Shown: one piece after another, positions 3,625-10,648 of the stretch
Numbering within the stretch: the first letter of the stretch is position 1
Layout of the letters: every line of letters begins with the position of its first letter
IMG/VR virus record: IMGVR_UViG_3300002756_000030
Span: 1-25,969 of that record
Length of the DNA: 25,969 bases
DNA from: a virus
Taxonomy: Duplodnaviria; Caudoviricetes
Strand: one strand, 5' to 3'
Notes under the pieces: generated by a model
Databases searched by the model: none
What the model was told of the DNA's origin: nothing
What the model saw: the letters and a program-made list of their open reading frames with translations, nothing else
Position numbers and translations under genes: made by a program

Positions 3625-4050
3625 GTGAGCACCGAAATCAAGGACGTGTCCCGAGAGTTCCCCACGCACGAACTGAGGGGGGACGGTCGCAGCGCAACCT
3701 TCATTGTCGGCACTCCCAGTGGCGCCCGGTGGGTTGCCATCGTCCCCCGCGCTGACTTCCTTGCTGCTGTGGCCGTCGAGTGCGACGCCATCGTGATCCC
3801 CCGCACTGACTTGCCAGAGGTCGCGCAGAAGTACGGGGAGTACCACGCCGGGACGCTCGTGGTGGAGGGCGGCACGACCGCCGAGGAAGCGCTTGCCGCA
3901 GCCCGTGAGTGGCTCGCCCTAGCCGAGCACCTGACCGCGCACCCGCCCCTGTCGGACCTCGGCACAGCGCTCGTTGAGAGAGCCGGCATGGACCGGGAGA
4001 AGGCCGAGCATGTCGCGCGCCTCCTTACCGAGGACGGGTGGTCGCGATGA
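3625..4050 (+). CDS. Hypothetical phage protein
   Basis: GAGG RBS upstream, 141-aa ORF, ATGA overlap with next gene. Confidence 0.7.
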   Translation: MSTEIKDVSREFPTHELRGDGRSATFIVGTPSGARWVAIVPRADFLAAVAVECDAIVIPRTDLPEVAQKYGEYHAGTLVVEGGTTAEEALAAAREWLALAEHLTAHPPLSDLGTALVERAGMDREKAEHVARLLTEDGWSR

Positions 4051-4529
4051 GCGCCACTGTCGCTTCGCCGATCGAGGCGGGCGCGATTGTCGCCAGCCGT
4101 TTCGAGGCGAAGGTGGGAGATCCGACCGCTACGGGATGCCTGCCGTGGATGGGCGATCACTCACCCCGCGGATACGGCCGGTTCCGGGTGGCTGGCAGGC
4201 AACGGCCCGCACACAGGGTCGCCTACATCCTCGCGCACGGCGAGCTCGACTCCGGACTAGTCATCGACCACCTGTGTCGCAACCCCTCGTGCGTGAACCC
4301 TGACCACCTCGAGGCGGTCACGACACAAGAGAACACGGCCAGGGGCAACGCCGGGGCGAACACTCGATCCCGCACCCACTGTCCCCGAGGCCACGCCTAC
4401 GACGACGAAAACACCGTCGTCTACAGCGGGCGTCGGCACTGCCGCACATGCCGCGGGGCATCCCTCCGCGCCGCGTCCAAGCGCCTCTACTGGCGCAAGC
4501 GTGGCGTCCGCGTTGAGGACGGTGCCTGA
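4047..4529 (+). CDS. HNH homing-type endonuclease
   Basis: RFEAKV, GCLPWMG, GYGRF, AHRVAY, IDHLCRNPSCVNPDHLEAVTTQEN, THCPRGH...CRTC. Confidence 0.92.
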   Translation: MSATVASPIEAGAIVASRFEAKVGDPTATGCLPWMGDHSPRGYGRFRVAGRQRPAHRVAYILAHGELDSGLVIDHLCRNPSCVNPDHLEAVTTQENTARGNAGANTRSRTHCPRGHAYDDENTVVYSGRRHCRTCRGASLRAASKRLYWRKRGVRVEDGA

Positions 4530-7700: not shown

Positions 7701-8515
7701 GCACCGACATGGTGAAGGCCAGCCCAACCCAGATGGTCCAGGGGTACAAGGACGAGTTCGCGCTCGTCCTCCCGTCCCACTTGAAGCCTGAGACGTGGAC
7801 ACGTCTCGCCGTGGGTGCGTTGCGCCGGGACAAGAACCTCGCCCAAGCCGCAGCGAACGACCCCGCCGCACTCATGGGCGCCCTGCTCGACGCCGCCCGG
7901 CTCGGCCTCGAACCCGGTACCGAGCAGTATTACCTCACCGTCAGGTCCGGGAAGGTCCTCGGGATCCCCGGGTACCAGGGCGAGATCGAACTCATGTACC
8001 GGGCCGGGGCCGTGTCCTCCGTCATCGTCGAAGCCGTCCACGAACACGACAAGTTCACCTACCGGCCCGGCATCGACGACAGGCCCGTCCACGAAATCGA
8101 CTGGGACGCCGACGACCGCGGGGCAATCCGCCTCGCCTACGCATACGCCGTCATGAAAGACGGGGCCACGTCCAAGGTCGTCGTCGTCAACAAGGCCCGC
8201 ATCAAGCGCGCCAAAGACGCCAGCTCCACCGCCGGCAAGTCGTTCTCCCCCTGGGCGTCCGACGAAGTTGCCATGTGGCTCAAGACCGCCGCGCACGACC
8301 TCACCAAGTGGGTGCCAACGTCCGCCGAGTACATCCGCGAACAGTTGCGGGCGATCCGGGACGTGTCTGCTGAGCCCGCCCAACCCAAGCCCCCGACCAC
8401 GCCCGTGGACGTGACCGCACTCCCCGAACAAGGCGACGTCATCGACGCTGAGGTCATCCCCGACCCCGACGTTGAGGCGGCATGGGGACTCGCTGACAGT
8501 GGCGACCCAGCATGA
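7697..8515 (+). CDS. recT: RecT-family ssDNA annealing protein
   Basis: LLDAARLGLEPG..QYYL, GYQGEIELMYRAG, AYAYAVMKDG, SPW....AMWLKT...LTKWVPTS. Confidence 0.93.
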   Translation: MSTDMVKASPTQMVQGYKDEFALVLPSHLKPETWTRLAVGALRRDKNLAQAAANDPAALMGALLDAARLGLEPGTEQYYLTVRSGKVLGIPGYQGEIELMYRAGAVSSVIVEAVHEHDKFTYRPGIDDRPVHEIDWDADDRGAIRLAYAYAVMKDGATSKVVVVNKARIKRAKDASSTAGKSFSPWASDEVAMWLKTAAHDLTKWVPTSAEYIREQLRAIRDVSAEPAQPKPPTTPVDVTALPEQGDVIDAEVIPDPDVEAAWGLADSGDPA

Positions 8516-8784
8516 ACGCGTCCCCGCTCCCACCATCCCTGACCGCCCTCGACTTCACACCCGTCATGTCGTGCAACTGGCAGGGAGGGTGCGCCACGGA
8601 GGCCACTGAAGCCCTCGTGTCCGTGCACCGGTCCGACGCCACCGAGTGCACGCGCGTGTCCTTCTGCACCGGGCACGCCAGCGTGATCCAACGGGCACTC
8701 GCCCCCGTCGCCTATGACCTCGTATGCCACGCCCACAACATCCCCGCCACATGGTCCTGGGATCTCATCGAGGTGGACGCATGA
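8512..8784 (+). CDS. Hypothetical Cys/His-rich protein
   Basis: ATGA overlaps; multiple Cys/His pairs. Confidence 0.65.
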   Translation: MNASPLPPSLTALDFTPVMSCNWQGGCATEATEALVSVHRSDATECTRVSFCTGHASVIQRALAPVAYDLVCHAHNIPATWSWDLIEVDA

Positions 8785-9785
8785 GGCCCCGGCTGCTCGA
8801 CCTGTTCAGTGGCGAGGGTGGCGCGTCCGAGGGGTACCGGCGCGCCGGGTTCGACGTGTACGGCGTGGACCTGTTCAAGCACGCGGACGACAAGGGGCGG
8901 ACGGTCGGCCCTTCCCGTGGCCGCTACCCGTTCCCGTCCGTGCAGGGCGACGTTATCGACGTGCTGAACCTGCTCCTGGCCGGGGAAGTCATCGAGTTCC
9001 TAAGCCCCGAGGGCGCCAATTATGCCGAGTCCCTGGGGCTGTGGGACTTCGCGGCGGCCGCGGCATCACCCCCGTGCCAGGCGTACAGCATCACGAAGCA
9101 CACGCACAACAACGAACACCCCGAGCTCATCGAACCCGTGCGCGAACTGCTCATCCGAACCGGCCTCCCCTACGTCATAGAGAACGTCGTCGGGGCACCA
9201 CTCATCGACCCGCTCATGCTCTGCGGGTCCGAGTTCGGCCTCACCGCATGGGACCCCGCGATCGGGGAGACCGTGCGCCTCGAACGTCACCGCCTGTTCG
9301 AGTCCAACGTGTTCCTCGTCGGCAACGGCGGGTGCCGCCACGACAGGTCCGTGCAAGTCGCCGGCGTGTACGGCGGCGGGTCCTCTGACCGGGGCCACGC
9401 CAAGAACGTCCGCCGCGGCGGATACACGCCAGCCAAGGCCGTCCGCCGCGGCGGATACACGCCAGCCAAGGCCGTCCGCAGCGAACTGCTCGGATGCGAC
9501 TGGATGACCATGTGGGGCCAAGCGCAGTCCCTTCCGCCCGCATTTACACAGTGGATAGGCGAGCAGCTTCTCGACGCGCTGCGTAGCGACGCTTCGACGC
9601 CGCCCGGTTCTTCAACCGAACACACTCGCGGCACTTCCGCTTCCCCTGGTCATAGAACAGATTCTCGCCCGAGTACGGGTGGCCCTGGGGGCAATGCGTC
9701 TTCCGAATGTTCGCTCCCGTCAGAGTCCGCGGCGAACGTCGCGTGTTCTCCTGCGTCGAACAGGGGTCAAGATGTTCCGGCTTAA
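8781..9785 (+). CDS. DNA (cytosine-5) methyltransferase with replaced, extended C-terminus
   Basis: Motif I LLDLFSGEGG, IV ASPPCQ, VI IENV, VIII RHRLFE, X-like SLPPAFTQWIGEQL; last ~80 codons are antisense to the HNH gene. Confidence 0.9.
   Translation: MRPRLLDLFSGEGGASEGYRRAGFDVYGVDLFKHADDKGRTVGPSRGRYPFPSVQGDVIDVLNLLLAGEVIEFLSPEGANYAESLGLWDFAAAAASPPCQAYSITKHTHNNEHPELIEPVRELLIRTGLPYVIENVVGAPLIDPLMLCGSEFGLTAWDPAIGETVRLERHRLFESNVFLVGNGGCRHDRSVQVAGVYGGGSSDRGHAKNVRRGGYTPAKAVRRGGYTPAKAVRSELLGCDWMTMWGQAQSLPPAFTQWIGEQLLDALRSDASTPPGSSTEHTRGTSASPGHRTDSRPSTGGPGGNASSECSLPSESAANVACSPASNRGQDVPA
9408..9479 (+). repeat. Perfect 33-bp in-frame tandem duplication
   Basis: GTCCGCCGCGGCGGATACACGCCAGCCAAGGCC x2 followed by GTCCGC; VRRGGYTPAKA repeated. 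Confidence 0.97.
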
Positions 9786-10044
9786 CGCACAGCCTGTTCA
9801 TGCAGAGGTGGTCGATCGTCGCCCCCGGCGGGATCGGTCCGACGAGGAACTCGTAAGCGAGTCGATGGGCGTACTTCTGCACCCAGATGCCGTCGTCGCG
9901 CTTCACCGAGAGCACGCCATATCCGCTCTTCGCAACCACCCCGGTCCACGTCCAACAATGCTCTTCGCGGACGACTCGTTGCTCGAATCGCAGTCGCGGA
10001 TCGGTTGGCGGCCGTTGCGTGAGCCTTACTCCTCTACGTCCCAT
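9544..10044 (-). CDS. HNH homing-type endonuclease, inverted insertion
   Basis: RFEQRV, CWTWTG, GYGVL, AHRLAYE, IDHLCMNRLCVKPEHL, QEN, THCPQGHPY, CREC; only clearly supported minus-strand gene in the early operon. Confidence 0.93.
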   Translation of the reverse strand: MGRRGVRLTQRPPTDPRLRFEQRVVREEHCWTWTGVVAKSGYGVLSVKRDDGIWVQKYAHRLAYEFLVGPIPPGATIDHLCMNRLCVKPEHLDPCSTQENTRRSPRTLTGANIRKTHCPQGHPYSGENLFYDQGKRKCRECVRLKNRAASKRRYAARREAARLSTV

Positions 10045-10046
10045 GT

Positions 10047-10125
10047 GCCCAACTATACCACCCAATACACGGAGCACATCGGCGCCCAACTGCTCGACCA
10101 CCTGCGCATTGGAGCCGTCGCATGA
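10047..10125 (+). pseudogene. Displaced original 3' end of the cytosine methyltransferase
   Basis: Reads AQ-x-IPP-x-YTEHIGAQLLDHLRIGAVA* with two apparent 1-nt deletions; parallels AQSLPPAFTQWIGEQLLDALR at 9522-9584; keeps ATGA overlap with next gene. Confidence 0.8.
10052..10060 (-). promoter_or_regulatory. Extended -10 element for leaderless HNH transcript
   Basis: Minus strand TGgTATAGT, 7 nt before the ATG at 10044. Confidence 0.6.
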
Positions 10126-10394
10126 CCGCCCACTCTCTCCCGCCGATCGCCCATGAGATGGCGTTCCAGGCGACCCGTCTGCCCGTCCCCGAGCAGGTCC
10201 CGGCGTTGCGTCGTGTCCTCGCATGCCTGGGCTTGGTCGATTACGGGGACGTGTTCGAACCGTTGCCGACCACGTGCGGGCACCCGTCGTCGTTGCTCGT
10301 CCGGTCGGTGGAGTACACGGGGACACGGTGCTCACTGTGCGCGCAGCACAGGCAGGCACGGAAGAACGCGGCACGACGGGCGGTGACCGCATGA
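10122..10394 (+). CDS. Hypothetical protein (CGH...CSLC Zn motif)
   Basis: GGAG RBS, ATGA overlaps. Confidence 0.65.
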   Translation: MTAHSLPPIAHEMAFQATRLPVPEQVPALRRVLACLGLVDYGDVFEPLPTTCGHPSSLLVRSVEYTGTRCSLCAQHRQARKNAARRAVTA

Positions 10395-10648
10395 ACGACT
10401 GGCGTGATCTTGCGTTGTGTCAGTGGGAGCCCCCGGACGACTGGTTCCCGCACCCGTCCGATGAGGCGGGGATCCGGTACGCGAAGGCTGCGTGTCGTGC
10501 GTGCCCGGTGATCCGCGACTGTGCCTCGTGGTCTCTCGAGTTCCGTCCCCGGCTGACGGATGGCGTGTTCGGTGGCATGTCCGAGGCCGACCGGTTGCGG
10601 ATCTGGCGGGCACAGTCACGACAGTCAGCCAGGGACGGTGCGGCATGA
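10391..10648 (+). CDS. WhiB-family (Wbl) Fe-S transcription regulator, phage copy
   Basis: WRDLALC...WFP...AKAACRACPVIRDC...GVFGGMSEADR. Confidence 0.93.
   Translation: MNDWRDLALCQWEPPDDWFPHPSDEAGIRYAKAACRACPVIRDCASWSLEFRPRLTDGVFGGMSEADRLRIWRAQSRQSARDGAA

Follow-up and report, generated by a model that had tools for sequence, protein, structure and literature searches.

A reversed HNH gene at the 3' end of a phage cytosine methyltransferase gene: a probable homing cassette with a replacement gene end

We propose that a reversed HNH endonuclease gene at the 3' end of a phage cytosine methyltransferase (MTase) gene belongs to a selfish homing cassette, which brings a replacement gene end with it and thus would spread without splicing. 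From comparison of related loci, we put the probability of this reading at about 0.72, and we consider that the cassette probably leaves the host MTase working. We favor the homing reading because of the recurrence of the layout, the mobility of the cassette, displaced gene ends (‘orphans’) that track their host genes, the loss of a TAYRC pentamer, the silent changes in the HNH gene, the invariant H79 and N100, and the predicted fold of a terminal helix. The window (the whole stretch of DNA that was analyzed, 25,969 bases) is a GC-rich phage contig carrying RecE/RecT, WhiB, methyltransferases, terminase, portal and capsid, and its host is presumably an actinobacterium because of WhiB and the best cultured matches. 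The cassette is located in the early gene block, on the plus strand, and its features are as follows.

8781–9785, plus strand: ORF of a compact C5 cytosine DNA methyltransferase (ATG at 8781; 334 aa including the read-through tail; PHROG 363, E 2.7e-21).
9399–9464, plus strand: 33-bp tandem duplication that keeps the frame and adds 11 aa to the variable region of the MTase, absent from P0001.
9531–9584, plus strand: replacement motif-X end (L251–R268), with a putative left edge placed where the protein departs from P0002–P0006 (at L251) and where the CAI drops (from 9531).
9585–9785, plus strand: read-through tail antisense to the HNH gene, predicted to be disordered (pLDDT under 50 for residues 300–334).
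9544–10044, minus strand: HNH (HNH_3) endonuclease, 166 aa, with C-terminal zinc-finger-like Cys/His motifs (Pfam HNH_3, E 1.8e-12; PHROG 826, E 3.6e-49).
9531–10054, no strand assigned: putative mobile cassette of about 524 bp (replacement end, reversed HNH and leader), with a putative left edge.
10045–10060, minus strand: predicted extended −10 promoter TG-n-TATAGT (hexamer 10057–10052), read from the sequence, 7 nt before the HNH ATG.
10055–10125, plus strand: displaced native 3' end, I-P-P-(2 nt)-YTEHIGAQLLDHLRIGAVA and stop, of which YTEHIGAQLLDHLRIGAVA and stop occupy 10066–10125, with an ATGA overlap with the next gene.
10122–10394, plus strand: next gene (90 aa, no family), starting in the ATGA overlap with the orphan stop.

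Two further HNH_3 genes (2031–2597 and 4038–4529, plus strand) show ordinary short overlaps with their neighbors; with the cassette gene, this makes three HNH genes in 26 kb, alongside methyltransferase-like genes that number at least three (8781, 10953 and 12219).

The preliminary description of this DNA reported that motif X of the MTase occurs twice, once in frame and once as a frameshifted orphan, with a complete minus-strand HNH gene between the copies. The coordinates and translations hold: AQSLPPAFTQWIGEQLLDALR lies at 9522–9584 in phase with the MTase, and the HNH gene runs from 10044 to 9544 (166 aa). Motif X of C5 methyltransferases contributes to SAM binding. The window protein carries FSGEGG, SPPC, ENV, RHR and PP..G, which we take to be the C5 motifs I (FxGxG), IV (PC), VI, VIII and X, respectively. 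The PF00145 profile was matched by 69 of the 92 aligned MTase members, but not by the window protein itself. A model of the window protein from the 92-row alignment (pLDDT 84.5, a confidence driven by the alignment of empty, that is HNH-free, alleles) matches the C5 folds 3g7u, DNMT1, DNMT3 and M.HaeIII (best E 4.7e-8).

Comparison with homologues identifies the orphan as the native end of the gene and the in-frame end as foreign. The orphan scored 24.8 bits on a motif-X profile, whereas the best of 2000 resampled 610-nt regions reached 4.6 bits, so that chance does not account for it. The ATGA overlap had been taken to mark the orphan as the original end, and this was supported: its last 19 amino acids are identical to the end of the intact homologue P0023, and its best native DNA matches (L169 and L166, 32 of 39 nt) both fall in the MTase clade of the window. 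The orphan of another carrier locus, L326, best matches L190, its nearest MTase (30 of 39 nt). The closest MTases (P0002–P0006, 74–78%) end in I-P-P-A-Y-T-[EQ]-H-[IL]-G-x-Q-L, with a stop codon that follows within some 20 residues; they and P0023 were called empty from their protein ends only. Among 74 viral empty alleles, parsed from 80 loci, the Tyr position is occupied by Tyr in 72, by Met in two and by Phe in none, and all stop 10–30 residues later, whereas the four carriers run 80, 80, 79 and 19 residues past it. As the preliminary description expected, the ending FTQWIGEQLL was found in none of these 74 alleles and in none of 119 protein homologues. The in-frame end of the window best matches L206/L208, members of another MTase clade (28 of 39 nt), and shares 33 of 57 nt with the orphan. 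Its codons are atypical, as had been noticed: the CAI of the 15 codons from 9531 is 0.457, a value as low in 72 of 3965 reference windows, vs 0.794 for the orphan and 0.784 for the MTase gene body.

The four known orphans all start with AT[AC] CCA C[CT][AC] AN TA[CT], which is Ile-Pro-x-Tyr minus one base, and this 1-nt deletion is common to all of them. On their left side, only I-P-[P/L]-(2 nt)-Y is common to the four; of the AQ-x-IPP-x originally assigned to the orphan, the AQ-x part was not seen in the other three. The orphan also holds a GGAG (10111–10114), 7 nt before the ATG of the next gene, which provides a second reason for its retention besides the predicted promoter. Among the repeats listed, there were neither terminal inverted repeats nor an exact target duplication at the cassette edges. 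An assembly chimera was considered and ruled out, since 9450–10400 is found on single contigs in runs X1, X6, X8 and X5, of which X1 may be the run that the window derives from.

An insert flanked by two copies of a junction motif might suggest an intron, an intein or a translational bypass that rejoins the MTase body to the orphan. This is hardly credible, because an Rfam search of 8700–10500 gave nothing above chance (one hit, E 0.82), no intein family was matched, the orphan is frameshifted in the window and frameshifted a second time in L006, and the carrier L327 has no orphan at all. The description of the element as intron-less and intein-less is thus upheld.

HNH similarity was the sole criterion for collecting loci, which were searched for motif X afterwards. 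All five loci with DNA that encode an HNH of the DQGKR[KR]C type (window included) carry a motif-X piece on the opposite strand, complete in three and partial in two. Such a piece occurs in none of the 159 other HNH loci (of the 156 that are free of the motif, 146 extend at least 150 nt downstream), and none of 83 loci found through the MTase has an antisense HNH. The layout is complete in the window, L006 and L326, which bears out the expectation that the same HNH clade lies antisense at the same motif in other phages. L327 has the MTase, the replacement end and the 3' half of the HNH, and has lost the HNH start and the orphan; its positions 1–700 likely represent a decay stage in which an MTase with a replacement end persists. 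L005 has the HNH and the orphan, but no MTase of the window family downstream. In that locus (1336–2150), the orphan is separated from the HNH by a 66-aa gene and a full TTGACA-17-TATGGT promoter, and the HNH tail is antisense over a short broken stretch, which presumably resembles an excisionase-type HTH start. A different C5 MTase end with another HNH follows 0.6–1.1 kb further on.

The motif lies equally far from the last CxxC in the window, L326 and L327, and 4 nt further away in L006. Among 11 clade proteins, the tails of five that are known as proteins only (P0122, P0124, P0125, P0129 and P0130) fit an antisense motif X in the exact register of the window, with scores of 21–31 that were equaled in 0–5 of 300 shuffles. 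A score of 20 or more was found for one of 59 non-clade tails and, in a rerun, for none of 42 at the fixed register and four of 42 at any of 25 registers. However, the clade tails of P0123, P0126 and P0127 misfit the register and three others are too short, and the near-clade loci L085 and L019/L097 are without an MTase; these observations count against the homing reading.

The A1 scan covered 5 of 64 metagenome parts and 18 of 64 viral parts, and the A2 scan 28 of 64. Since the scans covered part of the data, the HNH family is undersampled and the family counts are lower bounds. A search of representatives gave one further clade protein, P0289, among 148 new ids. A promoter-junction pattern in viral contigs gave no HNH or MTase among the 80 matches listed, and a tighter version matched once, in the L326 contig. 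The DQGKR pattern matched 33 genome contigs, none with an HNH, and three viral contigs, two with an HNH. A scan for short alignments led to the contigs of L326 and L327, and also to L363, whose HNH falls outside the clade and has no accompanying MTase. In L363 (2118–2680), this unrelated HNH is antisense between two head-assembly-type genes, with its tail over the last codons of the upstream gene. Cultured phages gave no DNA match to 9480–10140, and HNH identity was at most 46% among the 40 cultured-phage matches listed and at most 43% among the 10 plasmid matches listed.

The two gene ends of the carriers differ at one short site. The Tyr-Thr pentamer TAYRC is kept in 71 of 74 empty alleles and in all four orphans, and is broken in all four in-frame ends (TTTAC, TTCGC, TATTG and TTCAC). 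We therefore predict that TAYRC, within the Pro-Pro-x-Tyr-Thr codons, is a candidate target of the HNH. A single origin may underlie the three Phe cases, and two of them also make the HNH stop, so that the loss amounts to about two independent observations. The Tyr-to-Phe change need not be a resistance change, because it also creates the HNH stop in the window and in L327. In addition, Phe is found at the Tyr position in 11 of 119 protein homologues of unknown context, which counts against the homing reading. The HNH itself shows a weak sequence match to I-PpoI (E 0.024). NCBIfam profiles gave nothing above cut-off. D78, H79 and N100, putative residues of a beta-beta-alpha-metal active site by comparison with I-PpoI and I-HmuI, are invariant in 12 of 12 HNH proteins, and Lys88 stands where the Asn of CVNP is usual, which counts against the homing reading. 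The best match of the window HNH among called proteins is 79%, and the overlapping form of the MTase is nonetheless on record.

Next, trees were built from the MTase body without motif X (FastTree, 91 rows; IQ-TREE, 26 chosen rows), with L225 left out, the window duplication collapsed and L327 partial. The four carriers need four changes on the MTase tree, and a single carrier clade was rejected (p-AU 7.2e-5). HNH identity (56–70%) exceeds MTase-body identity (44–57%) in all six carrier pairs, and the cassette is patchily present at one conserved site across divergent MTase alleles. Given that the carriers do not form one clade and that the HNHs are closer than their MTases, these comparisons show that the cassette has moved between alleles, and we infer that the nuclease drove the movement. 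In run X12, from another study, the HNH is about 98–99% identical to that of the window; all three listed differences are silent in the HNH, and two of them change the MTase tail. Selection in X12 thus acts on the HNH and not on the MTase tail. The X12 HNH contigs are 151 nt long, too short to show their context. Over window positions 9605–9877, HNH DNA in X12 is 98–99% identical vs about 92–93% for the neighboring genes, and the MTase body has no match at 85%. An X12 relative joins 8535 to 10125 and is without a 90-aa gene, the MTase and the HNH (8536–10124); with similar gene starts at 8512 and 10122, this block has the appearance of an insertion between the two. Neither an empty allele nor its joint was seen in X1, X2, X5, X6, X8, X10, X11 or X12, which counts against the homing reading.

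The same distribution could arise if an old HNH insertion between two motif-X copies were moved as a passive module by ordinary RecE/RecT recombination, for which the two copies would supply the homology, without site-specific cutting. YqaJ/RecT is encoded next door, the in-frame ends are unlike one another, L005 and L327 are rearranged or decayed, and the X12 relative is without the whole 8536–10124 block. However, the HNH is intact and its changes are silent, the HNHs are closer than their MTases in every pair, TAYRC is lost in each of the in-frame ends, and the clade is tied to one motif in one register across 56–70% divergence. We therefore regard passive movement as rather unlikely, and retain homing as the preferred reading.

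The origin of the replacement end is a separate question. After DALR, the MTase frame has no stop and continues for 66 more residues to a TAA at 9783–9785, so that the MTase and HNH genes overlap by 242 bp, of which 41 bp (9544–9584) carry the motif. This corrects the earlier figure of about 45 bp of dual coding. A search for other MTases with this read-through tail found only the protein's own cluster. The preliminary description further held that the motif was rebuilt from the antisense strand of the HNH itself. Comparison gives no support to this wording: the HNH stop has no fixed position in the motif and follows tails of 15, 18, 20 or 23 residues, the I-G-x-Q-L core of L326 lies outside the HNH frame, and so does the Pro-Pro part in all four loci. 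For these reasons we prefer to see the replacement end as captured MTase DNA, which a variable HNH tail appears to have overrun. Overall, the earlier interpretation is partly supported.

De novo overprinting of the motif on the HNH antisense strand would explain why 41 bp of it are dual-coding in the window, and the high-GC Q-L-L-D-A-L codons, read antisense, do give the Arg/Ala-rich tail usual in these HNHs. Nevertheless, the HNH frame does not reach I/L-P-P-x in any of the four loci, stop positions vary, and the HNH of L326 stops before I-G-x-Q-L, which is close to a short HNH tail with the replacement end wholly outside; overprinting is very improbable. Some features of the in-frame ends count against homing. 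In pairwise comparison, the ends of the four carriers agree at 15–25 of 39 nt and do not represent a single conserved sequence, the L006 end resembles its own orphan (21 of 39 nt) no less than any other end, and those of L006 and L327 score below all 74 native ends. This low likeness indicates either old divergence or repeated re-capture, and speaks against a single fixed cassette end. Four further MTases (P0017, P0071, P0081 and P0093) end in F..[IV]G.QLLDA like the window replacement end, and are possible present or former carriers.

Does the MTase remain active? The replacement end is modelled as a terminal helix (about residues 251–272, pLDDT 95–98). The 33-bp duplication at 9399–9464, which the preliminary description overlooked, is modelled poorly (pLDDT under 50 for residues 220–222). 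Its junction unitig is present in X1, X2, X5, X6 and X10, a 63-nt piece of it occurs in X8 and X11, and both MTase forms are on record (334 aa in eight contigs, 323 aa in five). These 11 amino acids could alter or switch off the specificity of the MTase and, together with the 66-aa tail, could impair the window enzyme. It can thus be argued that the HNH homes here while the MTase is inactive or not needed, and that the upstream copy of the motif is a by-product of insertion and not a rescue. The poorly conforming ends of L006 and L327 and the X12 relative without the gene agree with this, and phage methylases are described as non-essential in the accessible parts of PMC9957025 and PMC11855218. 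On the other hand, the window, L006 and L326 all have open MTase frames that retain motifs I, IV, VI, VIII and X, and I-G-x-Q-L is kept under dual-coding constraint in five further proteins. We consider a dead MTase quite improbable, and the rescue of the enzyme remains our preferred reading.

The displaced end may also have acquired a function. On the HNH strand, its Ile-Pro codons give TG-n-TATAGT in the window and TG-n-TATGAT in L006, 7 nt before the ATG. In L326, the Tyr-Thr codons give TATACT and an Ile codon gives the ATG 7 nt later, so that the spacing from promoter to ATG is equal in the window, L006 and L326; in L005, the Ile-Pro codons overlap a TTGACA. A consensus scan found no full sigma-70 promoter and no terminator. 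The HNH is likely leaderless, and leaderless starts are common in actinobacteria according to the accessible part of PMC11855218. Because the displaced half-site overlaps the predicted promoter, autorepression is a candidate. The recoded half would complete the host enzyme and end the nuclease gene, and the displaced half would serve both as the HNH promoter and as a repressing site that is bound and not cut, like that of I-TevI, which represses itself via an operator (PMC2988022, in part). We offer this division of labor tentatively, and regard it as doubtful.

Taken together, homing might proceed as follows. The HNH would nick or cut empty alleles near the Pro-Pro-x-Tyr-Thr codons, and repair would cross over on the left in the MTase body and on the right in the Tyr-to-Leu stretch, so that the recipient's own end would become the orphan. 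Both copies would then escape cutting, the in-frame copy by the loss of TAYRC and the orphan by the 1-nt deletion ahead of it. The replacement would restore the terminal helix and yield an active enzyme with a disordered tail, and HNH expression would depend on an antisense transcript that has no leader and whose −10 box would have arisen from the displaced codons.

End replacement is not new in itself, since it is known from mobile ORFs (mORFs) of fungal mitochondria; here and below, comparisons refer to the accessible parts of the cited sources. mORFs with a replacement C-terminus occur in Allomyces macrogynus atp6 and in Glomus atp6, atp9, cox2 and nad3 (PMC3630166), and in Phlebia atp6 and cox2 and Ophiostoma rps3 (PMC4019555). 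As in our cassette, an endonuclease gene lies near the 3' end of the gene, with a foreign C-terminus in phase upstream and the native end downstream. The displaced end groups with the host gene (here in the window and L326, by a 39-nt comparison), and the two ends share about 60% DNA identity (33 of 57 nt here, 63.5% in Glomus atp6; PMC3630166). However, mORFs are organellar and encode LAGLIDADG or GIY-YIG enzymes, whereas here we find an HNH in a phage, on the opposite strand, with the nuclease tail over the replacement end and a predicted promoter in the displaced end; the Glomus mORF is co-transcribed with its host gene (PMC3630166).

The ShiLan domain is likewise an HNH insertion without splicing in a phage methylase, with patchy distribution and proposed leaderless expression (PMC11855218; PMC9957025). 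Its insert opens with an 11-residue copy of downstream host sequence and the host frame reads through the HNH. In contrast to our case, that HNH is on the same strand, in frame 3, the host frame spans the whole insert and rejoins the gene, and gp65 is a DPPY-type amino methylase. The ShiLan HNH and methylase gave no match to profiles of the window HNH and MTase families. In the ShiLan gp65 locus (L364, 4786–7668), the copy at the opening of the insert is a diverged host motif, and this duplication may rescue the host in the same manner; gp65 itself stops short of an FxGxG motif, which lies in gp67.

Free-standing homing endonucleases of the T4 type (seg, mob) resemble the cassette in having no intron or intein, in including the HNH family and in lying, in some cases, within coding sequence, but seg and mob sit between genes and cut far away, and mobE in nrdA of Aeh1 and mobA in gene 60 of T4 split the host into two chains (PMC2988022). 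No element in the accessible part of that review provides its host with a new end or overlaps such an end in antisense. In actinophage inteins with antisense LAGLIDADG or VSR-like nucleases, the nuclease is also antisense to an open host frame, but protein splicing is needed there and no splicing domain is found here (bioRxiv 10.1101/2025.01.02.630785). The accessible parts of PMC8393795, PMC7202290 and PMC10055350 hold no phage end-replacement case. No antisense HNH replacing the 3' end of a phage gene was found in the open-access literature, and the ShiLan and intein supplements could hold related inserts. The cassette functions much as C-terminus-replacing mORFs do, yet it belongs neither to that family nor to the ShiLan domain. 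Its antisense orientation, dual coding and apparent reuse of the displaced end as a predicted promoter were not found described in open-access literature.

If the homing reading is true, end replacement as practiced in fungal mitochondria would also exist in phages, there with an HNH in antisense, as a route into coding sequence that needs neither an intron nor an intein. If the displaced half also served as promoter and repressing site, the invasion would be self-regulating and free of splicing, with a predicted specificity determinant, and would be hidden from gene callers by the overlap. HNH genes overlapped in antisense are easily missed, and long MTase tails in annotations may flag more of them. 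For one 166-aa protein, the comparison yields candidates for the target, for two immune alleles and for the operator.
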